DNA of 64,000 nt from Nitrospirota bacterium (GTDB lineage Bacteria; Nitrospirota; UBA9217): assembly GCA_963663225.1 (NCBI GenBank), contig OY760142.1:2048001-2112000 (forward strand), in the 5' to 3' direction. Position 1 is the stretch's first letter; each line of letters starts with the position of its first letter. A program made the position numbers and the translations under genes. Shown here piece after piece: positions 4,007 through 16,244 of this stretch. The notes under the pieces are model-generated. The model did not search any database and was not told the DNA's origin. It was given only the letters and a program-made list of their open reading frames with translations.

Positions 4007-7000
4007 ATGCGAAAAACCCTTTTCTTGGGAATTGATGTCGGGTCCATAACGGTCAAAACCGTCCTCCTCGACGCGGAAAAAGCCGTATGCTTCGAGGCTT
4101 ATACCAGAATCAAGGGAGATCCGCTTCGGTCGCTGGAAAGTGAACTCAGGGCCCTTTCCGCACGGTTTCCGGAGGACAGCATCTTCGCAGCCGGAATCAC
4201 GGGCAGCGGCGGCAAGCAGGTCGCTGGCGTTCTCGGCGCCGTCTTTATTAATGAAATTCTGTCGCAGTCAGCGTTTGTCGGACACTTCCATCCGGATGCC
4301 CGCAGTGTCATTGAGATGGGTGGCGAGGACGCCAAACTGATCATTCTTACCCGCAAAAAAAACTCTCCGGACGTCAACATCGAAGATTTTGCCATGAACG
4401 CCGCCTGCGCAGCGGGTACCGGTTCGTTCCTTGACCAGCAGGCTTCCCGTCTCCACCTTACCATAGAAGAGTTCAGCACTATTGCCCTCCAATCCAAAAC
4501 CCCCCCGCGCGTGGCTGGCCGGTGCAGTGTGTTTGCAAAAAGCGACATGATTCATCTTCAGCAGATTGCAACGCCGGACTACGATATCGTAGCGGGTTTG
4601 TGCTATGCCATGGCCAGGAATTTCAAGGCAACTGTGGGGCGGGGCAAAAAAATTTCCACTCCGATCCTGTTTCTCGGCGGCGTCGCCGCAAACCTTGGAA
4701 TGCGGCGGGCTTTTTGCGACATACTTGCCTTGTCCGAGCAGGACCTGATTGCACCGGAGCATTTCAACACATCTGGTGCAATCGGTGTGGCGCTCATGCT
4801 GATGCGGCAGCCTTACCGGCCGGAACAGAAGATTGTATATCAAGGCGTGGCCGCTCTTTCCCGGTTTCTCGCAGAGCATGAAAAAAACAACAACGCAAGC
4901 GGCATGAGCCCGCTGATACGGCCATGCGGCATTATGCCGAATCCGGACCAGGATACTGCGCCTGATGCGGACGCACGGATAGACGCATACCTCGGCGTGG
5001 ATGTAGGGTCTGTTTCCACAAATGTCGTTGTTATCGATGGCAGTATGCGTGTGCTGTCCAAACGGTATCTGCCGACAGCGGGAAGGCCAATAGAGGCGGT
5101 CAAACAGGGGCTGGCCGAAATAGGGGCCGAAGTAGGAACCCGGGTGAGAATTGTCGGGGCAGGAACCACGGGATCGGGAAGATATCTGACCGGGGACATG
5201 ATCGGTGCGGATGTCGTCCGGAACGAAATAACGGCACAGGCCACGGCAGCGGCTTCCATCGACCCGCTGGTGGACACGATCTTTGAGATCGGCGGCCAGG
5301 ACTCGAAATACATCAGTCTGCGGGAGGGGACTGTCGTTGACTTTGAAATGAACAAAGCCTGCGCTGCGGGCACGGGGTCTTTTCTAGAAGAGCAGGCAGA
5401 GCGGCTCGGCATCCGCATCAAACAGGAGTTTGAGAGCCAAGCGTTTCAGGCCGCATCGCCGTGCCGGTTCGGAGAACGCTGCACCGTGTTCATCGAGTCG
5501 GACCTGGTGCATGCCATGAATACCGGCGCAGACGTGCAAGAAGTGACCTCCGGACTTGCGTACTCCATAGCGTATAACTATCTTAATAAAGTGGTCGCCG
5601 GCAGGCGCGTCGGGGACCGCATATTTTTCCAGGGCGGTGTCGCCGCAAACAAAGCGGTGATCGCCGCTTTTGAGAAAATAACCGGCAAGCATATTACCGT
5701 GCCGCCGCATCACGAAGTCACGGGCGCCATCGGCGCGGCCATTCTTGCCATGCGCGAACGTTCTGAAAAAAGTGCCTTCAAGGGTTTTGATCTGAGCAAG
5801 CGCGCGTACACAGTCACGACATTCGAATGCGCCGAATGTTCGAACCGTTGCGATGTCCGGCGGGTGAGCTTTGATGGAGAGAAACCTCTTTTTTATGGAA
5901 GCCGGTGCGAAAAATACGATGTGAAGAAAAAGGCATCCTCCGAAGGCGCTGTGGTTGATCTGTTCGGTCTGCGTGAGAAACTGCTTCTCTCAACTTCGCC
6001 AAGCCCAGCTGCTCCGGACAATGCGCCGAGCATCGGCATCCCCCGCATGCTCTATGTGAACGATTATATTCCTTTCTGGCAGGTTTTTTTCAGCGAACTG
6101 GGATACCGTGTGGTTCTGTCCGAACGCACCAACCGCACCCTCATCAGCCGCGCTCTGGAAGCCACGGTGGCAGAAACCTGCTTCCCCGCAAAAGTTGCGC
6201 TTGGTCACATCCAGGATCTTCTGGATAAGCAGGTTGACATCTTGTTTCTGCCAAGCTTCATCCGTTTCCCGCCTTCACAGGACCAGTCAAAGAATGAACA
6301 GGCCTGCCCTTATGCGCAGGCATTGCCGTATATCGCCCGGACTTCCATCCGCTTCGGGAGCACAAAGACGATCGAGCCTATTCTGCATCTTCAGGACGAG
6401 CGGCATTTCAACAAAAGCATGCAAGAGTTGGGAGCAATGCTTGGAGCGGGAAAATCTGCGATAGTAAAAGCCCGGCAGCGCGCCCAGCGTGCGCAAAAGG
6501 ATTTTTCGCATGCAGTGGAGAAGCATGGCCACGATGCCCTCTCCCGTGTCAAGCCTGAAGAAAAAGTGCTTGTGCTTGTCGGTCGAAACTACAATACGTG
6601 CGATCCGGGAACGAATCTGGGTCTTCCTTCCAAGGTACGCGATCTGGGCGTACAAGCCATTCCCATGGATTTTCTGCCGCTCCATCATGTGGATCTTTCG
6701 GGCTATGAAAACATGTACTGGAGATCGGGACGAAAGATTTTGGCCGCTGCACGATTCATCCGGGAGCATCCCAATCTCTATCCCGTATATATTACGAACT
6801 TCGGGTGCGGACCGGATTCGTTCATTACCCATTTCTTTCAAAGCGAAATGGGCGATAAACCGTTTCTGCAGCTTGAAATTGACGAACACAGCGCAGATGC
6901 CGGAGCAATCACGAGAATCGAGGCGTTTCTGGACAGCCTGAAGAACTCACGAAATGACAAGGCCCGTGTTCCTTTCAGCGTATCCAAAAAAGACAATGGA

Positions 7001-8197
7001 ACGCTTCATACAAAAAAAGTGTTTTTTCCATACATGACCGATCATGCTTTTGTGCTTGCATCTGCTTTTCGCGCGTGCGGTGTAGAAGCCGAGGTGTTGC
7101 CCGAGTCTGACGAGGAGACCGTGAGGGTCGGGAGAGAATTCAGCTCGGGCCGCGAGTGCTATCCACTCACTCTCACGACCGGGGACATGATCAAGGCTAC
7201 CCGCAGGCCGGATTTTAATCCGGAAAGGACCGCTTTCTTTATGCCCACAGGAAAAGGCCCGTGCCGCTTCGGCCAGTACCACCGTTATCAGCGGCAGGTG
7301 CTCGATCGGATCGGCTTGGAGCGTGTAGAGATTATTTCACCCATGCAGGACGAGTCAATGCATAAAGACGTGCGCATACTTGACAAAGACTTTGTTCTTA
7401 TGGGATGGCGGGGGGTCTTTGCGGTGGACATGCTTCAGAAGGCGCTGTGGGAATACCGTCCGTATGAAAAGCATCCCGGCCGGTCTGACGCAGTATATCA
7501 AACAGCGCTTCAAAGGGTGCTCGACGCGATCGAGAAGCGGACGGACCTTCTACCGGTACTGCGGGAGGCCTATGAAGACTTCTCCGGCATCAGGATTTCG
7601 GATCGCACCAAACCCGTGATCGGCGTCGTGGGGGAGATCTATATCCGTTCAAACCGGTTCAGCAACGAAGACGTGGTGCGGCAGATTGAAATGCTCGGCG
7701 GTGAAGCCTGGGTGGCGCCGATGTCGGAGTGGCTGCTGTATCTGACCGCCACTGCAAAGGTGTCGGCGACGATGAACCGGTCCTGGAAGGCGCTGCTCAA
7801 AGCGTATTTGACAGGGCGGGTCCAGCACAAAGACGAACGACGCTTTCTGAACGCATTCAACGGAAATCTGCGCAGTCTGCATGAACCAAGCATCAACCAG
7901 ACACTCCGAACGGCGCGTCCCTATATTCATCATTCCTTTGAAGGCGAAGCCGTGCTGTCCGTGGGCAAGGCAATCGATTATATAAACCGCGGCGTCTCGG
8001 GAATTGTGAATGTGATGCCGTTTACCTGCATGCCGGGCACGATCGCGAGCGCGGTGCTGAAACGCGTGCAGGAGGAGCACAATAATATTCCTCTCCTGAA
8101 CATTGCATACGAAGGCCAGGGCGACTCACAGACCATTACCCGACTTGAAGCGTTCATGCACCAGGCGAAATCGTATCAGAAATCAAGGAGGGGATGA
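4007..8197 (+). CDS. CoA-substrate-specific enzyme activase: two BadF/BcrAD ATPase domains fused to dehydratase-like (DUF2229/HGD-D) domains
   Basis: Two GxDVGS...ExGGxDxK...MNxACAAGTGSFL units, CAECSNRC linker, TNFGCGPDS and PFTCMPG motifs. Confidence 0.9.
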   Translation: MRKTLFLGIDVGSITVKTVLLDAEKAVCFEAYTRIKGDPLRSLESELRALSARFPEDSIFAAGITGSGGKQVAGVLGAVFINEILSQSAFVGHFHPDARSVIEMGGEDAKLIILTRKKNSPDVNIEDFAMNAACAAGTGSFLDQQASRLHLTIEEFSTIALQSKTPPRVAGRCSVFAKSDMIHLQQIATPDYDIVAGLCYAMARNFKATVGRGKKISTPILFLGGVAANLGMRRAFCDILALSEQDLIAPEHFNTSGAIGVALMLMRQPYRPEQKIVYQGVAALSRFLAEHEKNNNASGMSPLIRPCGIMPNPDQDTAPDADARIDAYLGVDVGSVSTNVVVIDGSMRVLSKRYLPTAGRPIEAVKQGLAEIGAEVGTRVRIVGAGTTGSGRYLTGDMIGADVVRNEITAQATAAASIDPLVDTIFEIGGQDSKYISLREGTVVDFEMNKACAAGTGSFLEEQAERLGIRIKQEFESQAFQAASPCRFGERCTVFIESDLVHAMNTGADVQEVTSGLAYSIAYNYLNKVVAGRRVGDRIFFQGGVAANKAVIAAFEKITGKHITVPPHHEVTGAIGAAILAMRERSEKSAFKGFDLSKRAYTVTTFECAECSNRCDVRRVSFDGEKPLFYGSRCEKYDVKKKASSEGAVVDLFGLREKLLLSTSPSPAAPDNAPSIGIPRMLYVNDYIPFWQVFFSELGYRVVLSERTNRTLISRALEATVAETCFPAKVALGHIQDLLDKQVDILFLPSFIRFPPSQDQSKNEQACPYAQALPYIARTSIRFGSTKTIEPILHLQDERHFNKSMQELGAMLGAGKSAIVKARQRAQRAQKDFSHAVEKHGHDALSRVKPEEKVLVLVGRNYNTCDPGTNLGLPSKVRDLGVQAIPMDFLPLHHVDLSGYENMYWRSGRKILAAARFIREHPNLYPVYITNFGCGPDSFITHFFQSEMGDKPFLQLEIDEHSADAGAITRIEAFLDSLKNSRNDKARVPFSVSKKDNGTLHTKKVFFPYMTDHAFVLASAFRACGVEAEVLPESDEETVRVGREFSSGRECYPLTLTTGDMIKATRRPDFNPERTAFFMPTGKGPCRFGQYHRYQRQVLDRIGLERVEIISPMQDESMHKDVRILDKDFVLMGWRGVFAVDMLQKALWEYRPYEKHPGRSDAVYQTALQRVLDAIEKRTDLLPVLREAYEDFSGIRISDRTKPVIGVVGEIYIRSNRFSNEDVVRQIEMLGGEAWVAPMSEWLLYLTATAKVSATMNRSWKALLKAYLTGRVQHKDERRFLNAFNGNLRSLHEPSINQTLRTARPYIHHSFEGEAVLSVGKAIDYINRGVSGIVNVMPFTCMPGTIASAVLKRVQEEHNNIPLLNIAYEGQGDSQTITRLEAFMHQAKSYQKSRRG

Positions 8198-8512
8198 AGG
8201 GAACCCGACCTGTCTGCAAACACTGTTTTCATTAATGGCTGGTTAAAATAAAAATGAATTCGAAGATGATTGCAAAATGTAATATTCATTTGTTTTGACG
8301 TTAGGATTTATATTTTCAATCACGACAACAGGGATATCGAAAAGGACCGGACATGGACAGATTCCGTTGATTATCAACTTCGGAAAAGACAATCCGGTGT
8401 ACAGTCTGGAAGTTTCTCCTTAAAATGCAGACGATTCAGTGAAATGTTCTTCAAGTTGTTTTTTGTATAACGTAAATCTACGACAGCAGAGTAATCCGGC
8501 ATCAGCTTGCTC

Positions 8513-8540
8513 TTGACAAAATGCATTTTTGTGTTACAAT
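8513..8540 (+). promoter_or_regulatory. Sigma70 promoter of the precursor/radical SAM operon
   Basis: TTGACA (8513-8518), 16 nt, TACAAT (8535-8540) with extended -10 TG; palindrome AAAATGCATTTT at 8518-8529. Confidence 0.7.
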
Positions 8541-8624
8541 AAATAATAAGTAATATTATTTGTCATAAACAATTAAAATTGTCAATTAAGGCTTATTGCT
8601 TTATTTGACGATAAGAGGTTTGTT

Positions 8625-9002
8625 ATGAATGACAAAATCGAAAAGCCGGAAAAATCTATTCAAAAACAGGATGCAGATATTGAAACAAAAAAAATCAACC
8701 GGCGGGAAGCCATAAAAAACATCGCCAAGACTATTGCCGTAGCAGGCGCCTGCACGATCCCTTTTCTTTTTACACAACGTGAAAGTGAGGCCGGCAACAA
8801 GCAGTTTGCGCAAAATTCCAATTACTGCAACTATGCAAACTACAGCGACTACGCGGCCTACGGGAATTATTATAACGTGGCCAACTATGCGAACTACTAT
8901 AATGTCGGCAAAGGGCTCTACCTGAACTATGCCAATTATACAAATTATCGCGACTATATAAATTACCGGAATTACGGAGATTACGCTAACAAGTGTAGAT
9001 AG
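8625..9002 (+). CDS. Putative RiPP precursor with Tat-like leader and (Y-x-N/D)n repeat core
   Basis: INRREAIK, hydrophobic stretch, then SEA|G; core YCN YAN YSD YAA YGN YYN VAN YAN YYN VGKGL YLN YAN YTN YRD YIN YRN YGD YAN KCR; AGAGG RBS; directly upstream of radical SAM genes. Confidence 0.85.
   Translation: MNDKIEKPEKSIQKQDADIETKKINRREAIKNIAKTIAVAGACTIPFLFTQRESEAGNKQFAQNSNYCNYANYSDYAAYGNYYNVANYANYYNVGKGLYLNYANYTNYRDYINYRNYGDYANKCR
8823..8990 (+). repeat. Degenerate 9-bp coding tandem repeat encoding Y-x-N/D triplets
   Basis: TAY-NNN-RAY periodicity visible in DNA; codons vary while Tyr and Asn/Asp are kept. Confidence 0.9.
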
Positions 9003-9022
9003 TTGGATGCATCCCTGATCGA

Positions 9023-10006
9023 ATGGCAAATCTTCTTCTTACTACTACGTGTGTCCGTTCCTGCCCCTACTGTTTTGCAAAAAGCGAGATGAAAGAAGCA
9101 AATCCCGGAGATGTAATGTCCTGGGAAAATCTGATTTATCTTGCTGATTTTCTGGCCCTTTCCTCGGAAAAACACATCTCTCTTCTGGGAGGAGAGCCGA
9201 CCCTTCATCCCGCTTATGTGGATTTCCTTCTGTATCTTCTTGAGCGCGGTTTTCATATAACCACATTCACCAGCGGCATTCTCTCGCAGGAGAGGCTGGA
9301 AGAGCTGAAACAGTTTATCACTCCGCTGCCCGTGGACCGTCTCAATTTTGTCTGTAATCTGAACGACCCGGAGCAAACACCGGCGCCGGAAAAAGAGCAG
9401 GCGCGGATCAGCGCGTTTCTCTCCCTGATGGGACCGTGGACCATTCCGGGATTCACCATCTACCGGACTGACTTTGATCTGAAATTCATTTTTGAAAACA
9501 TGTCCCGCTATGGCCTGCAGCGCCAGCTTCGACTCGGCATTGCCAGCCCGACTCCGGGTCATGATAACCAGTTTATCGATGTAAACCAGCATAAACAGGT
9601 TGTTGACCGCCTCTATTCTTTTAAAAAAGAAATCGAGCAATTGCGGGTACGCCCCAGCCTCGACTGCGGTTTTCCTCTCTGTGCGTTCAGCGACGAGCAA
9701 CTTGGATGGATTTACCGCCGTACGAGGCATGTGTATTTCGAGTGCGGCCCCACCATTGACATCACTCCGAACCTGGATGTTTACAATTGCTTTCCGCTTT
9801 CCCGGTTCCATAAACGGTCGATCTTTGAATTTACCACATTCAAGGAAGTCATCGATTATTACCAGAACCTGCATAACAAAGTAAGAAAAGAAATTCCCGG
9901 AATGTACGCGGAATGCGGCGCGTGTCCTCACCGGGATGAACAGCGTTGTTCCGGAGGCGGGCTCTGTAATATCATGCACCGGTTTGTTGAAAAGACCACG
10001 GTTTAA
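9023..10006 (+). CDS. Radical SAM protein with C-terminal SPASM-like Cys cluster
   Basis: CVRSCPYC (CxxxCxxC), LGGEPTLHP, C-terminal ECGP...NCFP...CGAC...CSGGGLC. Confidence 0.9.
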   Translation: MANLLLTTTCVRSCPYCFAKSEMKEANPGDVMSWENLIYLADFLALSSEKHISLLGGEPTLHPAYVDFLLYLLERGFHITTFTSGILSQERLEELKQFITPLPVDRLNFVCNLNDPEQTPAPEKEQARISAFLSLMGPWTIPGFTIYRTDFDLKFIFENMSRYGLQRQLRLGIASPTPGHDNQFIDVNQHKQVVDRLYSFKKEIEQLRVRPSLDCGFPLCAFSDEQLGWIYRRTRHVYFECGPTIDITPNLDVYNCFPLSRFHKRSIFEFTTFKEVIDYYQNLHNKVRKEIPGMYAECGACPHRDEQRCSGGGLCNIMHRFVEKTTV

Positions 10007-10022
10007 GCAGGAAAAATAACGA

Positions 10023-10865
10023 ATGAATTTTCCAAACATTGTTTGTCCATATGACCAGAACCTTTTACAGCGGCTGAAAGGGTATGGAATTGTCGTCCGT
10101 GTTTCCGGTCCGTCAGAGATCATACAGGCAGCGGCCGCGTCAAAGGCCTCAACACGCAACAACCTGCTGAATGTTATCGTCGAATCACGGGAGGCGATGG
10201 ATGCTTTCAAGTTTCAGGATGAATGGCTCGGTATTCCTCTCGCTCTTTTTTTCCCAGAAATGGGAAAGTTCCGCAAATTGGGGGAAAAACTGGAGCAGAT
10301 CCGAAAACTAAAGGCCCATATTTATCTCCCGGCTGAACGTGATGAAAATCTTACTTCCTGCCGGATCCTGTCTTCACTGGGGATCACTTCCTGCCTTGCC
10401 TTCTCACAAGACAAGGCTCCAAACTGGGACTCCCTGGCGGACCTTATGACCTACGCGGTTTTTGGATCTGTCGCGCATGCCCCTCTGGAACCGTTTGCGC
10501 ATATCCGCGGCAACTATGAAGCGAAACAATACGCGGACTGGGGCTCCGTCTGTTTTGATAATCCGCGCGGATATCTGCACGTCGATGCACGGGGGCGCGT
10601 GGCACTTTCGAAGGATGAACTCGCACAGGGAATATTCATAGCCGATGATATTGCGAAGCTGAAAAATCCAATGGATTGCCCGGAATACGCGGAGCGGACG
10701 AATGTTCGGAAGCGTTTTTTTCTGGAGGACCATCCATGCACACGGTGCGAAGGATGGAAGGTCTGCTTGGGGAATTTTATGCGCGACGGAAAGCCTGTCG
10801 ATGGCTGCAGGGAGTTCTGCCGCGAGCTGCTGGTAGCGCTGGAGCAAAAAAAGCAGACCCAGTGA
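10023..10865 (+). CDS. Hypothetical protein with SPASM-like Cys tail but no radical SAM motif (possible degenerate radical SAM partner)
   Basis: No CxxxCxxC; C-terminal CTRCEGWKVCLG...GCREFC; short spacing to both neighbours. Confidence 0.65.
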   Translation: MNFPNIVCPYDQNLLQRLKGYGIVVRVSGPSEIIQAAAASKASTRNNLLNVIVESREAMDAFKFQDEWLGIPLALFFPEMGKFRKLGEKLEQIRKLKAHIYLPAERDENLTSCRILSSLGITSCLAFSQDKAPNWDSLADLMTYAVFGSVAHAPLEPFAHIRGNYEAKQYADWGSVCFDNPRGYLHVDARGRVALSKDELAQGIFIADDIAKLKNPMDCPEYAERTNVRKRFFLEDHPCTRCEGWKVCLGNFMRDGKPVDGCREFCRELLVALEQKKQTQ

Positions 10866-10887
10866 CCGTGACTAAAAGAGGTTTGAC

Positions 10888-12009
10888 GTGACGACGGTAA
10901 TTTTCAAAGCGACCGAAGAATGCAATTCACGATGCGCGTACTGCGCCGTGGTGCGCAAAAACCACCTGGGCCCCACCATTATGCCCGCTGAAACGCTCGA
11001 ACGGTTTTTTGTCCGTGTCAACGCTTATCTGTCGGAACGACCTGAGGACCACCTGAAGATCATCTGGCATGGTGGAGAACCGCTGACTTTGGGGCCTGAC
11101 TATTTTTACCGCGCTCTGGAACTGCAGCAGAAACACTGCGCCGACACCTGCGGACAGATCACGCATGAGATGCAGAGCAATCTTACGCTGTTCTCGCGAA
11201 AATTCACGGATGTGTTCCGAAAAATGGGGATCACCTCATTCGGCACCAGTTACGATCCCCGTCCCGGCATCAGGGGGCCCGGAAAAACGCCAGACACAAG
11301 GGAGTATAACAGGCGGTTTCTGGATGCGCTCGCCCTCCTGGAAGAGGAAGGCTTCACGTGGGGCGTCATCTATGTGGTGACGAAGCAATCACTCCAAAAT
11401 CCTCTGGAGATTTTCCGCCTGCTTACGAACATCAATCCGGCAGGGTCTGTTATGTTCAATCCGGTGACGTTCTACAAAACAAACCCTGTGGACCTGGCCA
11501 TTACTGCGGAAGAGTTCGCCGATTTTCTCGGAGCGCTGTTTCCGTACTGGTGGGAAAATCACAACCGGTTCTCCGGTGTCGAGCCGTTTTACTCCCTGAA
11601 GCAGAACATCCTTGAGGGGGACGAGACCCTGATCTGCACCTATTCAGGAAAATGCGGAGAGACACATTTTAATGTCGGGCCGAGTGGCGCGGTCTCGCAG
11701 TGCGGCCGTTCCGCCGACTGGGGACTGATGGACAACGGATCGATCCATGAGCGGTCCCTTAGTGAAATCATGGCCGATCCGCGAAAACAGTCACTCCTGA
11801 AGCGAGCCGAGGTCTTGATAGGAGTGGACTGCGGCGGCTGCCGGTTCTGGAACATCTGCCACGGCGGATGCCCGCTCGACGCCCTGGCGGAGCAGGGAAC
11901 GATCATGCGCAAATCTCCTTCGTGCTGCATCAACAGAAAAGGATTTATAGAAAAATATTTCGAGCCGATTACCGGCATGCGCTATCGGGCGCGCGAGATA
12001 GAGTCATGA
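10888..12009 (+). CDS. Radical SAM/SPASM peptide maturase (anSME/cyclophane-synthase-like)
   Basis: KATEECNSRCAYC, WHGGEPL, MQSN, SPASM CTYSGKC...QCG...CGGCRFWNICHGGCP...CC; GTG start with GAGG RBS. Confidence 0.9.
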   Translation: MTTVIFKATEECNSRCAYCAVVRKNHLGPTIMPAETLERFFVRVNAYLSERPEDHLKIIWHGGEPLTLGPDYFYRALELQQKHCADTCGQITHEMQSNLTLFSRKFTDVFRKMGITSFGTSYDPRPGIRGPGKTPDTREYNRRFLDALALLEEEGFTWGVIYVVTKQSLQNPLEIFRLLTNINPAGSVMFNPVTFYKTNPVDLAITAEEFADFLGALFPYWWENHNRFSGVEPFYSLKQNILEGDETLICTYSGKCGETHFNVGPSGAVSQCGRSADWGLMDNGSIHERSLSEIMADPRKQSLLKRAEVLIGVDCGGCRFWNICHGGCPLDALAEQGTIMRKSPSCCINRKGFIEKYFEPITGMRYRAREIES

Positions 12010-12136
12010 ATGGAGCCAGACGATCAACCAGCCGTGCCTGTCGTTCCATGTCTTGTTCTTTTTCTTGTACTGGGTTCAGGTGCATATGCCCAGACTAGGT
12101 AGGATGCTGGTGCCATTCTCGACCAGGGAGAAAACT

Positions 12137-15100
12137 ATGAGCCGAACGCAGAATAAGGCGCTGCTTATTTTTGTTTGTACTATCGCAATCCTGCTTTGGA
12201 GCGAGACGTCCTTTTCGCAGAGCAAGGACGAGGCCGAGCGGCTTTGGGAACTCGGGGAAAAGGCATTTGCGGCCCAGAAGCACCAGGAGGCGCGTACGTA
12301 TTACGAGCAATCCCTTGCACTCTGCCGGCAGAGCAACAACCGAGAAGGCATTGCATCCAACCTGAACGGCCTCGGTGAGGTATATGAGGCACTGGGTGAT
12401 TTCAGAAAAGCGCTTTCGTATTATGAAGATGCCGTCAACACCGCGCGACAAATCAATCACAAGGACCTTATTGCGACGAACCTGTTCAATGCGGCATCAA
12501 TCTACAGTTCCGACCTTCACCAATACGACAAGGCAATGCAGCTTTTTGAAGAGTCTCTCAGGATGTTCAGGGAGCTGAACAACAAGGAAAGCACGGCCAT
12601 CGTACTGTTTAATACGGCCAAGACTTTGCAGTCCCTGGGGCGGTATGAGCAGGCGCTGTCCCTGTTCAATGAGTCCCTCAGGCTGAACCGGGAGCTAAAG
12701 AGCTTGCCGGGCATTGCGGGCAATCTTAACCTGATCGGCAATGTATACGCGCGCCTCGGGCAGTATGACAAACCGTTGCCGCTCCATGAAGAGGCGCTCA
12801 GGATAAACAGGCAACTGGCCGATCAGAAGGAGATCGCATTGACCCTTAGGAACATCGGTGATGCGTACGTCGATCTTCTTGAATACGAGAAGGCATTTTC
12901 CTATTACGAACAGGCGCTGGCAATCCAGAAAAAACAGAATATGAGGGCCGATCTCTCAATAACCCTGACCAACATGGGGGCACTGTATCAAGCCCTCGGC
13001 CGGTACGACAGGGCTCTCGCGGCATACCGAGAGTCCCTTGCCGTCAGCAGGGAAACGGATAATCGCCCCGAGATCGCGACCATCCTGAACAACATCGGCC
13101 ACACCTATGCATCGCTCGGTAAATCGGACGAAGCCCTTTCCTATTATCAGCAGGCGCTGGCGATCGAAAAACAGTTGAACAGGCCGCAGAGGGCAGCGAT
13201 TGTGTACAATAACATCGGCATGGAGCAGTTCCGCAGCGGGCAATATGAACAGGCTCTGTCTCATCTCCAGGAAGCGCTCAGGATCAGCAGACAATTGAAC
13301 ATGGTGCATGATATTACGCTCCGGTTGAACAATATCGGAGCGGTTTACCTGCGGCAGAAAAAATACCGTGAAGCGGAGGAGGTATTCCTCGAGAGAAAGG
13401 CGTTGCAGGCGAAGATTCCGAAGATCAGACTGGTGCATCCTGGCCTGGAGGAACTCTATCTTATCCGGAAACAATATGATGCGGCGCTGGCGCTGCTGGA
13501 GGATCCCGGCAGAAAGCCGACCTGGCGGTCAAACAGCGCCTATTCTCTCGAATATTACACGCATTATGGCGCGGCATTGAAAGGCAGGCTCCGGTATCGG
13601 GAAGCAGCGCAGGCACTGGAGCAGGCGGTTTCCCTGTCGGAAGAGATGCGGCTGAGGGCAGGTGAGCAGAAGAGCTTTTTTGCGGGAGGGGGGTATATCG
13701 GCCGGCTGCGTCCTCACCGCCTGCTTTCGGCAGTGCTTGCGGAACGGTCAATGAGCGGTGAACGATCCGATGCGCAGTTCGCATCCTACGGAAAGGATTT
13801 GGCGTCGGGCGCCTTCTCCGTTGCGGAACTGACGAGGGCAAGAACTCTTCTCGAAACAATGGCGGCTGCCGCGAGAAAGCAGGATAATTCGGAGCTGCCG
13901 GTTGAAATAAAGAACCGGGAAAAGTCGCTCTTCACCGCCTGGGAGGAAATCGAAAAACGGTGGGAAGCGGAGTACCAAAAAGGCGAGGCCGCCGTCAGGC
14001 GTCTCCAGAAGGAAAAAGAAAACCTGAAACGCGAAATCGACTCCCATATTGCAATGGTCAGAACAGCCTACCCGAAATATGCGGCGCTCAATTATCCAAA
14101 TCCGGACCCGGCAAACGAACTGCCACTCAAGGACCAGGAAATCCTGATCGAATATGCACTTCATGAAGACGGCGGTTATATTTTTACGGTAAGAAAAGGC
14201 GGCATACAACGAATTACCAGAATATCAATGAGTACCGAGCAGTTAACAGAGCGGATCGGGCGGTTTATGGAGGCCGTCGGAGCGGAACAAGGGAGAGGAT
14301 TTTCCATGACCCTGGCAAAAGAATTGTATGATGTTTTGTTCGCGCCGGTGGCCGCTGACGTGAAGACCGCTGATACGGTCGTTATTGTGCCGGACGGCAT
14401 CCTTGGCCTGTTGCCGTTTGAAGCCCTGGTCATGGAAACCGGCAAAAATTATACGGACAGTGTGTATGTTGGAGACCGCTACGCCATCACCTATTCCCAG
14501 TCGGCATCCGCCCTCGCACTCGGGCGGATGAGGAGCCCTTCCGGAGCGGTAAAACCGCTGTTCGCTATTGGCAACCCCGTTTTCAGCAAACAGGATCCCC
14601 GCTACATAGCGTATAAACAAGGAAAAGCCCAGCCAACACCGGCATCTCTGGCGCAAGGCGATTATGCATACAGAGCAGTTACCGTTGTACCGAAAAACGT
14701 CACAGCATCTTCTTCCGACGGGTGGGAAGAGATTGTGTTTAATCCGCTCCCGGAGACAGAGGACGAAGTAAGGGCAATTGCCGGTCTCTATAGCGTGCCG
14801 CCATTGCCGCCTGATATTCTTTTGAACATGGCAGCCACCAAGGGCAACGTGAAAAAAGCTCCTTTGAAGCAATACCGCTATCTCCATTTTGCCACGCACG
14901 CCGATCTGCCGGGGAAAGTGCAGGGAATAACAGAGCCGTTTCTGATTCTGGGGCAGGTGGAAAACGAAGGCAAGGATAACGGATTCCTGACGTTGAGCAA
15001 CGTGCTGGATCTCGGGCTTGACGCGGACATGGTGGTTTTGTCGGCATGCATGACCGGAAAGGGCAAAATCATGGAGGGAGAAGGGGTGACCAGTTTTGCA

Positions 15101-15313
15101 AGGGCGTTTTTGCATGCCGGAACCCGCAGTGTGATCGTGAGTTTGTGGGAGGTCGCGTCCCGCCAGACTGTCGAATATATGGAAGCATTTTACGGCGGCC
15201 TTAAAGCGGGCGGGACCAAAGCTGAAGCCTTGAAAAATGCCCGCAGTGTGATAAAATCCAAATATCCGGAACCCTATTTCTGGTCCGCCTTTATTTTGCA
15301 CGGAGAACGATAA
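12137..15313 (+). CDS. Secreted TPR-repeat CHAT-domain (caspase-like) protease
   Basis: Signal peptide MSRTQNKALLIFVC...; many TPRs (LNNIG...YxxAL); CHAT motifs IVPDGILGLLPFEAL, LHFATH (His), VLSAC (Cys), PYFWSAF; start set by AGGGAG RBS. Confidence 0.92.
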   Translation: MSRTQNKALLIFVCTIAILLWSETSFSQSKDEAERLWELGEKAFAAQKHQEARTYYEQSLALCRQSNNREGIASNLNGLGEVYEALGDFRKALSYYEDAVNTARQINHKDLIATNLFNAASIYSSDLHQYDKAMQLFEESLRMFRELNNKESTAIVLFNTAKTLQSLGRYEQALSLFNESLRLNRELKSLPGIAGNLNLIGNVYARLGQYDKPLPLHEEALRINRQLADQKEIALTLRNIGDAYVDLLEYEKAFSYYEQALAIQKKQNMRADLSITLTNMGALYQALGRYDRALAAYRESLAVSRETDNRPEIATILNNIGHTYASLGKSDEALSYYQQALAIEKQLNRPQRAAIVYNNIGMEQFRSGQYEQALSHLQEALRISRQLNMVHDITLRLNNIGAVYLRQKKYREAEEVFLERKALQAKIPKIRLVHPGLEELYLIRKQYDAALALLEDPGRKPTWRSNSAYSLEYYTHYGAALKGRLRYREAAQALEQAVSLSEEMRLRAGEQKSFFAGGGYIGRLRPHRLLSAVLAERSMSGERSDAQFASYGKDLASGAFSVAELTRARTLLETMAAAARKQDNSELPVEIKNREKSLFTAWEEIEKRWEAEYQKGEAAVRRLQKEKENLKREIDSHIAMVRTAYPKYAALNYPNPDPANELPLKDQEILIEYALHEDGGYIFTVRKGGIQRITRISMSTEQLTERIGRFMEAVGAEQGRGFSMTLAKELYDVLFAPVAADVKTADTVVIVPDGILGLLPFEALVMETGKNYTDSVYVGDRYAITYSQSASALALGRMRSPSGAVKPLFAIGNPVFSKQDPRYIAYKQGKAQPTPASLAQGDYAYRAVTVVPKNVTASSSDGWEEIVFNPLPETEDEVRAIAGLYSVPPLPPDILLNMAATKGNVKKAPLKQYRYLHFATHADLPGKVQGITEPFLILGQVENEGKDNGFLTLSNVLDLGLDADMVVLSACMTGKGKIMEGEGVTSFARAFLHAGTRSVIVSLWEVASRQTVEYMEAFYGGLKAGGTKAEALKNARSVIKSKYPEPYFWSAFILHGER

Positions 15314-15380
15314 TGCGAGGCGATTGCATCAGCATTCCTGCCGATGCGACGTTCTGTTTCAATGATCCAGGAGGACAAGC

Positions 15381-16244
15381 ATGAATAAATTTTTTATTGC
15401 GTTCCTGTTCCTTATTTTGTCGGCATCCGGTCTGCATGCGGTTCAGTCCACGATTACCGAAGCGGAAGGAACGGCGTGCATGGGAGACGACAAGTCCCGG
15501 AAGCAGACTGAAGAAGCGGCACTGACCGCGGCAAAGAAAAAGGCGGTGGAGTACGCCTCTACGTATGTCTCGAGCGAGACCACGGTGAAAAATTTCATTA
15601 CCGAAAAGGACTTTGTGTCCGCGTATGCGAACGCCTCAGTCAGGATTATTCAGGAACTGGAAAAATCCTGGTACAAGGACCCGGTGTCCGGCGATTGCTG
15701 CAAAACAAAGATCAAGGCGGAAGTGCTGCCGGATGAAAAATCGATGGCCCGACTTTCCAAGAGCTCCGCCGTGGCGGACGATCCTTCCGCTCCGCTGAAC
15801 ATAAAAGTATGGACGGACAAGAAGGAATACAAAAGCGGAGAAAAAATAAAAGTTTTTCTGAGAGGCAATAAACCGTTCTACGCGCGAATTCTGTATAAGG
15901 ACGCGGGAGGAGAATTGGTCCAGCTTCTGCCGAATCCCTATAGAAGCAGCACTTATTTCCACGGCGGCACTATTTATGAATTGCCTTCCGGTGATGACAA
16001 GTTCGATCTGGAAGTCGGCCCGCCTTTTGGCAGTGAGAATGTTGTTGTATACGCGAGCACGTCGCCCCTCGGTGAAATCAGTACCCAGACGCGAGGCGGC
16101 GTATATCAGATAAAAACACAGCCTAAAGATGTGGAAATGAAAACACGCGGCGTGGCGTTGGTGCAGAAACCTGAAGGAAAAGCTGGAACCGCCGCAGCAT
16201 CAGAATTTTTTGAAGAAAAAACAATAATAAAAACAACAAGATAA
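15381..16244 (+). CDS. Secreted DUF4384-like protein with N-terminal FlgT-N/LPP20-like domain
   Basis: Signal peptide; EAEGTAC...AALTAAKKKAVE; VWTDKKEYKSGE...LLPN...LEVGPPFGSE pattern. Confidence 0.7.
   Translation: MNKFFIAFLFLILSASGLHAVQSTITEAEGTACMGDDKSRKQTEEAALTAAKKKAVEYASTYVSSETTVKNFITEKDFVSAYANASVRIIQELEKSWYKDPVSGDCCKTKIKAEVLPDEKSMARLSKSSAVADDPSAPLNIKVWTDKKEYKSGEKIKVFLRGNKPFYARILYKDAGGELVQLLPNPYRSSTYFHGGTIYELPSGDDKFDLEVGPPFGSENVVVYASTSPLGEISTQTRGGVYQIKTQPKDVEMKTRGVALVQKPEGKAGTAAASEFFEEKTIIKTTR

Follow-up and report, generated by a model that had tools for sequence, protein, structure and literature searches.

What is made from a small peptide whose C-terminal half is laid out in tyrosine triplets and whose gene is followed by two radical S-adenosylmethionine (SAM) enzymes? 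The question is raised by a four-gene operon at positions 8513–12009 of the window, by which we mean the whole 64,000-nt stretch analysed here, from a Nitrospirota bacterium (GenBank assembly GCA_963663225.1, contig OY760142.1, positions 2,048,001 to 2,112,000 of the forward strand). The operon encodes the peptide precursor, a radical SAM enzyme (rsA), a cysteine-tailed partner protein (mid) and a radical SAM/SPASM enzyme (rsB). We are highly confident that the operon is real, that it is part of a conserved system for which NCBIfam and Pfam have no entry, and that the tyrosine-repeat peptide is the substrate of this system. The full explanation that we mildly favour is that the window carries a minimal member, lacking the glycosyltransferase domain GT9, of a widespread radical SAM maturation system for exported tyrosine-repeat peptides. 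At the level of the system this reading is strong; the chemistry is what we infer. The features, all on the + strand, are as follows.

8513–8540, +: sigma-70-like promoter, TTGACA-16-TACAAT with an extended −10 TG, 11/12 matches
8625–9002, +: precursor open reading frame (ORF), 125 aa; ORF calling; ribosome-binding site (RBS) AAGAGG 7 nt 5′ of the ATG
8700–8726, +: twin-arginine leader motif RREAIKNIA (precursor residues 26–34), followed by a hydrophobic stretch at residues ~35–50
8820–8999, +: Tyr-repeat core (precursor residues 66–125) with 18 Tyr, 15 Y-x-N/D units, Cys68 and Cys124
9023–10006, +: rsA, radical SAM enzyme, 327 aa; ORF calling; PF04055; CxxxCxxC at residues 10–17
10023–10865, +: mid, Cys-tailed protein, 280 aa; ORF calling; RBS AGGAAA
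10888–12009, +: rsB, radical SAM/SPASM enzyme, 373 aa; GTG start; RBS AAGAGG

ORF calling recovers the four co-oriented genes of the initial annotation, with its intergenic gaps of 20, 16 and 22 nt.

The tyrosine-repeat peptide and its relatives

All 18 tyrosines of the precursor lie within residues 67–125, its last 59 residues, and a recount gives the same 12 YxN, 3 YxD and one YAA triplets that had been read from the sequence at the outset. Successive tyrosines are three residues apart in 13 of 17 gaps, and the core holds 15 Yx[ND] units; in 20,000 shuffles of the core, the corresponding values had means of 2.57 and 4.95 and never exceeded 10 and 11. The underlying DNA contains a single array (9 nt × 2.9 copies, 8961–8985) and is not a slippage-type repeat; therefore, the periodicity of the tyrosines is kept at the level of the protein. 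The precursor is single-copy in its genome and matches no family of Pfam or NCBIfam, and its relatives have 93%, 44%, 47% and 34% identity to it. Eight precursors with an NY-type core align with 40 invariant columns (alignment A3), so that this type of core is conserved as a specific sequence, of which the window copy is a shortened form. Both cysteines that flank the repeat core, Cys68 (8826–8828) and Cys124 (8994–8996), are invariant in all eight. Small size and odd composition are the only features suggesting that the peptide ORF is a chance low-complexity frame. We consider this practically impossible, since it is refuted by conservation, namely the orthologues elsewhere and the invariant columns; the promoter, the RBS, the tight spacing and the character of the DNA speak against it as well.

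How widely is the cassette found? A genome search with rsB as the query and one genome per species gave seven loci, whose record titles name Nitrospiraceae (95% identity), Armatimonadetes, two Syntrophobacteraceae, Thermodesulfobacteriota, Korobacteraceae and Bacteroidales. The order rsA–mid–rsB is kept in six of the seven; at the exception, L008, nothing of the cassette but an rsB relative is found, next to other radical SAM genes. A metagenome scan with the rsA alignment matched 486 stretches, 360 of which encode relatives, and the metagenome figures given here come from the best 80 loci of these 360. Complete cassettes are present in 42 of the 80. In the 65 loci with room of at least 900 nt, mid follows rsA in 62 by ORF calling and in 64 by tblastn (the exception being L068). 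rsB follows mid in 42/48 by ORF calling and in 46/48 by tblastn, the four recovered genes running off contig ends; L037 and L048 are true exceptions without rsB after mid. The genes of the relatives' cassettes typically overlap at their starts and stops (−32, −13 and −4 nt). The family is thus large, with 360 rsA relatives in one metagenome scan and 312 mid clusters at 50% identity, and it extends to at least six bacterial lineages by record title, in habitats that are mostly anaerobic. Within the phylum of the window, mid is found in 8 of 401 sampled genomes (G000 included), among them two of the five other genomes of the same genus; the distribution is therefore patchy and accessory-like. 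The earlier claim of a new peptide-plus-radical-SAM system is borne out to this extent: the system is conserved across several phyla, and no curated family tested describes it.

Relatives of the precursor were sought by a filter that requires an RR motif in the first 120 residues, followed by a 30-residue window holding at least 5 Tyr. A candidate ORF passes this filter at 54 of the 80 metagenome loci and in 36 of the 42 complete cassettes. As a control, 9 of the 29,046 ORFs of the window genome pass, only the precursor having more than 5 Tyr, and from this control about 1.6 passing ORFs would be expected in the 574,702 nt of the loci. A strict leader motif is matched by 2 of 34,173 ORFs of the window genome, one being the precursor. 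Forty-seven of 57 candidates lie upstream of rsA, 36 of these within 300 nt, and the other ten lie 2.0–3.5 kb past the end of rsA.

The small ORFs beside the cassettes have the leader in common but not the core. Cores of the NY-x-NY type occur in the window, L012, L013, L014, L016, P0003 and P0004; YYNYGD in L020, L021 and L030; YRY in L018; YSS in L010, L080 and L061; GYGVSGDYTDS in L034, L036, L054, L056, L058, L062 and L065; and YYSYYYYYNYY in L081 and L090. Core lengths in the family range from about 25 to 210 aa, with 15 to several dozen tandem units. Accordingly, the YxN repeat, which the initial annotation had put forward as the conserved hallmark, is not one. Homologues without a YxN ORF, the very observation that the annotation had named as counting against it, were found; what does hold among the neighbours of the homologues is a period of three in the tyrosines.

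The rule was drawn from 57 non-redundant sequences with 4,771 core residues, near-duplicates having been removed by 5-mer sharing; since related sequences are not independent, its figures are descriptive and are not probabilities. The cores consist of 28.1% Tyr, 20.7% Ser, 9.0% Gly and 7.4% Asn. The Tyr–Tyr autocorrelation is strongly positive at lags 3 and 6 (z = +19.4 and +15.0) and negative at lags 1 and 2 (−9.8 and −15.1), and the best lag of the individual sequences is 3 in 26, 4 in 11, 6 in 9, 7 in 8 and 5 in 3. Two residues after a tyrosine (Y+2) are found Ser (40.7%), Asn (17.4%), Tyr (17.0%) and Asp (8.7%), with Gly and Ala at 1.3% each, whereas Gly makes up 9.3% of the residues at Y+1, 9.1% at Y−1 and 12.7% at Y−2. 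In counts, there are 17 Gly at Y+2 versus 124, 122 and 168 at Y+1, Y−1 and Y−2; of 41 cores with at least 3 Gly, 31 have none at Y+2, and Gly at Y+2 is also low (1.2%) where Y+3 is not Tyr. Judged by these sequences, the constants of the family are the RR leader, the tyrosine period of three and a directional Y-x-(S/N/D/Y) unit with Gly almost excluded at Y+2, and not YxN. The aromatic-x-X three-residue units that define triceptide precursors are thus found here, as 15 Y-x-N/D units in the window and as a rule throughout the family. A cyclophane between residues i and i+2 needs a side chain with a beta-carbon two residues past the aromatic. That Gly and Ala are kept out of Y+2 throughout the family agrees with such a link, and with the triceptide-like unit that had been proposed for the locus from the start.

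Two further features of the precursors may be mentioned. Three loci carry two different precursors side by side (L018 3951–4899, both of YRY type; L006 8089–8828; L069 5047–5969), and a subfamily in L055, L069, L079 and L085 has in common a C-terminal Cys-containing block ending in ...YGSTY.SGG.

The core also goes with the presence of a further enzyme. Of the 42 complete metagenome cassettes, 17 have the GT9 domain PF01075 as a fusion to rsB, 17 encode it separately and 8 lack it. A core was scored at 44 complete-cassette loci, genome and metagenome loci taken together. Of these, 37 have Ser at Y+2, and 36 of the 37 have GT9 (e.g., L005–L009, L024, L063 and L077); the one that lacks it, L071, is flanked by no more than 451 nt. 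Three (L013, L018 and L021) of the seven loci without Ser at Y+2 still have GT9. Where GT9 is missing although the core was scored and at least 3.7 kb of room is available (L004, L016, L056, L058 and L065), no locus has Ser at Y+2. In the window, the operon has no GT9 gene, the only GT9-domain match of the genome is weak and lies elsewhere (E = 0.0045), and the 15 Y-x-N/D units of the precursor leave no Ser at Y+2. This suggests that GT9 may act on the Y-x-S unit and that the window product would not be glycosylated. The protein heptosyltransferases TibC and AAH heptosylate Ser in the cytoplasm before export.

A variant system is seen in three loci (L037 5645–8813, L048 696–3603 and L057 5664–8236), in which a 55–56-aa peptide with RRxAxKRIA is followed by rsA and a mid–GT9 fusion, without rsB. 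In L037 and L057, this peptide stands directly after lasso-type genes, which in L037 comprise, by Pfam, an ABC exporter, a PqqD–transglutaminase fusion and an Asn-synthase homologue. This arrangement suggests that rsA and mid may be able to tailor a lasso-type peptide and to recognise the RR motif.

Could the Tyr-rich ORF encode a secreted protein that merely lies beside enzymes acting on a cofactor, a lipid or a glycan? None of the four proteins has a PqqD domain or other RiPP recognition element (RRE; RiPP, ribosomally synthesised and post-translationally modified peptide), GT9 enzymes usually act on lipopolysaccharide cores, and the weak matches of rsA include MoaA, viperin and the tetraether synthase Tes. 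All the same, the leader is kept while the cores vary, the ORF adjoins 36/42 complete cassettes as against about 1.6 expected from the genome control, Ser at Y+2 accompanies GT9 with the one exception given above, and the variant pairs the same leader with a lasso-type peptide. We therefore regard a mere neighbour as very improbable and retain the peptide as the substrate.

The twin-arginine leader and the question of export

The leaders conform to the consensus (S/T)RRxA(I/L)KR(I/M)A followed by a hydrophobic stretch. Counted from the first Arg in 57 leaders, RR is present in 57, Ala at +3 in 55, Ile/Leu at +4 in 51, Lys at +5 in 48, Arg at +6 in 55, Ile/Met at +7 in 51 and Ala at +8 in 46. 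A 12-aa window with a mean Kyte–Doolittle value of at least 1.2 is present in 57/57, a lipobox-like Cys in 10/57, and small-x-small sites are seen by eye ahead of the cores. These features resemble those of a twin-arginine (Tat) signal peptide, and export of the product by the Tat pathway appears reasonably probable to us. Below the cut-offs, precursors also match the signal regions of Tat substrates (MsrP, iron oxidase and the formate dehydrogenase TAT target), and the window genome encodes TatC (233 bits). Given the Tat-like leader and the lipobox of some relatives, a feature that the initial annotation does not mention, the product would probably be exported, with a lipid anchor in the relatives that have the lipobox. 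In that case, it would differ from a classical small diffusible RiPP.

A different view is that the N-terminal region is not a Tat signal but a recognition helix for the maturases or an uncleaved membrane anchor, and that the product is not released to the periplasm. The Tat consensus usually has Phe where the leaders here have Ala (+3), and KR(I/M)A is kept beyond the needs of export. In addition, with the TAT_signal model TIGR01409, the best of 10 precursors scores 15.4 bits, below the cut-off of 16.7, and the window peptide gives no match. The peptides of the variant loci L037, L048 and L057, two of them beside lasso-type genes, keep the RR motif without the hydrophobic stretch, so that the motif may serve recognition instead of export. 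On the other hand, the hydrophobic stretch in every one of the 57 leaders, the lipobox-like Cys, the small-x-small sites, the weak matches to Tat-substrate signal regions and the TatC gene speak against this view, which we consider unlikely.

Returning to Tat export, the two functions need not exclude each other. Tat proofreading chaperones of the TorD, DmsD and NapD type bind the twin-arginine signal until maturation is finished. By analogy, we propose that the RR motif could be the handle for rsA and mid and, in most members, also a Tat signal.

In one relative the lipobox is found in an unusual context: the 255-aa Bacteroidales precursor (L010 8040–8807) combines it with a YSS-repeat core and a C-terminal Peptidase_S74 domain (60.4 bits). 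This intramolecular-chaperone domain is otherwise known from self-cleaving trimeric phage fibres.

The enzymes and the proposed reaction

Both enzymes pass the gathering score of PF04055 (Radical_SAM; 29.5), rsA with 55.5 bits and rsB with 39.9 bits. Their CxxxCxxC motifs, at residues 10–17 of rsA and 12–19 of rsB, are invariant in the family alignments (A2 for rsA and A4 for rsB), so the two CxxxCxxC enzymes around a Cys-tailed protein are as first described. No PqqD/RRE match to NCBIfam or Pfam was found in any of the four proteins, as had also been remarked at the outset; since the motifs start at residues 10 and 12, there is no room for an N-terminal RRE in either enzyme. In the survey, the PqqD domain occurs only in the lasso-type neighbours of variant L037.

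The C-terminus of rsA is SPASM-like by its Cys pattern, with 8 invariant Cys beyond CxxxCxxC (A2), but it matches no SPASM model. Its matches to curated NCBIfam families are weak and N-terminal, the best reaching 35.6 bits against a cut-off of 180. In rsB, the SPASM domain is recognised by TIGR04085 (40 bits, cut-off 27) and falls just under the Pfam threshold (PF13186, 19.7 versus 21.5). The best-scoring family for rsB is anSME (TIGR03942, 134.4 bits versus a cut-off of 349.45), followed by DynA (NF041298, 132.4 versus 450), DarE (NF038005, 108.4 versus 650), TIGR04083 (103.1 versus 300), AmcB (NF041718, 82.6 versus 425), GrrM/OscB (TIGR04261, 79.7 versus 310), YhhB (NF041707, 63.2 versus 445), FxsB (TIGR04269, 60 versus 370), HxsB (TIGR03978, 50.2 versus 370, where rsA scores 15) and XyeB (TIGR04496, 40.4 versus 450). 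The best match to a solved structure is also anSME (4k37, E = 1e-15). Membership of a known family was therefore rejected for the operon proteins, every cut-off of a curated NCBIfam family being missed; of all the curated groups tested, only the radical SAM superfamily and the SPASM domain include any of these proteins. The placement of rsB among triceptide maturases, as initially envisaged, holds only loosely: its nearest neighbours are the anSME/DynA/DarE/cyclophane-forming group, but at scores far under every cut-off.

What, then, is the protein between the two enzymes? mid matches no family of Pfam or NCBIfam, has no CxxxCxxC motif and gives no PF04055 match. An exhaustive search of 1.84 billion cluster representatives, clustered at 50% identity, found homologues in 312 clusters at E ≤ 1e-3, 270 at ≤ 1e-10 and 167 at ≤ 1e-30, whose members are nearly all of about 280–290 aa. 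The residues C239, C242, C248, C262, S118, W135, P157 and F158 are invariant in 35 diverse members, the tail consisting only of CxxCx5C and one later Cys. The AlphaFold model is of high confidence (pLDDT 94.5, pTM 0.91). With this model, Foldseek against the PDB gave no match at E ≤ 1e-3; ranked by TM-score and probability, the radical SAM enzymes SuiB (5v1s, TMq 0.53, probability 0.93) and AbmM (8wm2, TMq 0.41) stand at the top, and the remaining matches are TIM-barrel enzymes. An hhalign comparison of mid with rsB, which at a probability of 1.2% is a hint only, pairs the invariant EPF of both, CxxCxxWxxC with CGGCRFWNIC of rsB, and C262 with C347 of rsB. With rsA hhalign found no match, and the mid profile found nothing meaningful among PDB sequences. 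Our reading is that mid may be a radical-SAM-like barrel that has degenerated, its SAM cluster being lost and one auxiliary four-Cys site kept; this site may correspond to the second auxiliary cluster of anSME-type enzymes. Family members carry only generic names at the source: relatives of mid, where they are named, and the Atlas clusters nearest to the homologue P0006 are each a "hypothetical protein", and the rsB–GT9 fusion cluster is an "uncharacterized protein" or a "SPASM domain-containing protein". As rsA and mid are invariant across the family, the rsB-less variant included, they form its core pair.

We propose the following scheme. Since the enzymes are of Fe–S type and have no signal peptides, rsA, mid and rsB would act in the cytoplasm, on the unfolded core. 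The unit modified would be Y-x-(N/D), which is known as a sequence rule only. In this unit, rsB would abstract a hydrogen from C-beta of residue i+2 and join this carbon to the Tyr ring; hydrogen abstraction from C-beta is what its nearest relatives, anSME, DynA, DarE and the cyclophane-forming maturases, carry out. Up to 15 tandem three-residue cyclophanes could result in the window peptide, the "about 16" of the initial annotation being a figure of the same inferred kind. rsA, with mid, may install a second modification or may prepare or hold the substrate. The twin-arginine motif would serve as both maturase handle and export signal, in the manner of the proofreading chaperones; after modification, the peptide would be exported and the signal removed, and Cys68 and Cys124 could, speculatively, then close a disulfide. 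That the main reaction is tandem formation of cyclophanes from Tyr to C-beta of i+2 by rsB is a tentative proposal, to which we give something short of an even chance.

Several observations weigh against this scheme, among them the missing Foldseek match of mid and the 1.2% probability on which the link between mid and rsB rests. The chemistry is deduced from sequence and not from an observed modification, and since all the proteins score under the curated cut-offs, it is not transferable by family membership. The partner at Y+2 is not fixed, because Tyr, Val and Arg are also found there. Six of the 42 complete cassettes fail the strict precursor filter: L043 and L083 hold clear family members missed by the regular expression, and L028 has a short member of 70 aa when the filter is relaxed, but in L051 and L035 the ORF with the leader lacks a Tyr-rich core, and L084 has too little flank. 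Finally, none of the sequencing runs listed as containing the stretch is on record as RNA.

It is also conceivable that the same system works on the same substrate by another chemistry, namely ether or C–N links to C-beta, anSME-like C-beta oxidation of Ser, Asn or Asp, epimerisation, or splicease-like excision of the Tyr side chain. For rsB, anSME and DynA score as well as any cyclophane family (from 82.6 for AmcB down to 40.4 for XyeB), and DarE and DynA make ether or C–N links to C-beta. Moreover, with two radical SAM enzymes more than one reaction is to be expected, and most residues at Y+2 have an oxidisable beta-CH2. Nevertheless, the strict use of Tyr, the period of three and the directional i-to-i+2 rule fit a link from Tyr to i+2 better than a change to a single residue, and with Gly after Tyr in only 9.3% of cases the cores are a poor fit to the X-Y-G motif of the spliceases. 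A different reaction therefore seems to us somewhat unlikely, and the cyclophane remains our working proposal.

It is tempting to carry the cyclophane proposal further. If every Y-x-X unit of a 50–200-residue core were cyclised, the product might be a new kind of exported material in place of a small antibiotic-like RiPP: a rigid ladder of constrained phenols, glycosylated in most relatives and, in some, lipid-anchored or set free from an S74 chaperone domain that trimerises. Its leader, being also what the maturases recognise, would act as an export checkpoint. Delivery by Tat would follow, since a cyclised chain can no longer be threaded unfolded. Were this so, a poly-phenol rod in anaerobes could serve electron hopping, metal binding or envelope cross-linking. 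We consider such a material decidedly improbable.

Known systems and neighbouring genes

The operon belongs to an already known kind, ribosomal peptides modified by radical SAM/SPASM enzymes. Closest in logic are the triceptide maturases (XncB/XyeB, OscB/GrrM, MscB/FxsB, YxdB and YhhB), which are likewise SPASM radical SAM enzymes without an N-terminal RRE and whose substrates carry aromatic-x-X units in which residue i+2 is Asn, Asp, Ser or Arg. The review PMC11002830 gives the i-to-i+2 links to C-beta as follows: Tyr C3 to Asp by YxdB, Tyr C3 to Arg by YhhB, Phe C4 to Ser by MscB, and Trp to Asn or Asp by OscB. The system described here differs from the triceptide systems in its second radical SAM enzyme, its partner lacking the SAM cluster, its twin-arginine-like leader, the frequent GT9, its 15 to several dozen tandem units in cores of about 25–210 aa, and the scores of rsB far under the curated cut-offs.

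DarE and DynA, the enzymes of darobactin and dynobactin, are among the best-scoring families for rsB and also form links to C-beta of i+2; they differ in having short Trp-based single cores and one enzyme, and rsB is far under their cut-offs. anSME, the best family and best solved structure for rsB, modifies a protein in the cytoplasm prior to export. Its target motif in sulfatases is Cys/Ser-x-Pro/Ala-x-Arg; rsB lies below its cut-off, and no such motif was seen on reading the sequence of the window precursor. The His-Xaa-Ser system (HxsABCD) likewise has a precursor of three-residue repeats and two radical SAM proteins but differs in the repeat residue and the leader, with HxsB scores under the cut-off. 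Bufferins are ribosomal peptides modified by multinuclear non-heme iron-dependent oxidases (MNIO) in which an export signal replaces the classical leader and which act outside the cytoplasm. The use of an export signal instead of a classical leader is the likeness to our family; the enzyme class, the type of signal and the Cys targets differ. In PMC12452194, the term "signal peptide" occurs 31 times. The Tat proofreading chaperones and the heptosyltransferases TibC and AAH are analogies only, with no sequence relationship claimed, heptosylation being relevant to the GT9 of the relatives.

Neither the system nor its precursor type, signal-like leader, SAM-cluster-less partner or frequent GT9 fusion was found described in Pfam, NCBIfam or the full-text literature searched. 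If the chemistry is as proposed, the product would be, to our knowledge, the most densely modified radical SAM peptide and the first with a Tat-type signal as its leader, and RiPP-style maturation would be linked to a pathway that exports folded proteins. The family offers a sequence rule that lends itself to testing, namely Y-x-(S/N/D/Y) from which Gly at +2 is excluded, and its natural variants, with and without GT9 and with and without rsB, can be used to assign a role to each enzyme.

The strong promoter of the initial annotation is present as a near-consensus site (8513–8540), but it is to be taken as a consensus match only, since the region has six promoter-like sites versus 3.8 ± 2.1 in shuffles. 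Terminator-like sites show no excess in the region (6 versus 4.9 in shuffles), and an Rfam scan of 8200–12300 gave no match. Directly upstream of the operon, on the same strand, lies a gene for a 1,396-aa BcrAD_BadFG/DUF2229 fusion (4007–8197), with BcrAD_BadFG ATPase modules (best at residues 329–581), DUF2229 and a weak HGD-D tail. Downstream of rsB (12053–16244) follow a TPR-CHAT protein and then a DUF4384 protein, with no terminator-like site seen between rsB and them; the TPR-CHAT gene is 1,086 aa as called (12053–15313), an ATG with an RBS at about 12138 being the likelier start. These three genes were rejected as parts of the system, as they are common only to L004, a locus 95% identical to that of the window, and not to other loci.

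Other genes recur beside the cassettes of relatives. A protein of about 400–470 aa that matches no Pfam family stands just upstream of rsA in L006 (2871–4139), L007 (287–1576) and L009 (2881–4125) and is also found in L027, L029, L031, L041–L044, L046, L053 and L059; a single query, of about 420 aa, gave no match in the window genome. PKD-domain proteins adjoin the cassette in two unrelated loci, L005 (2455–3111) and L010 (8811–9491).

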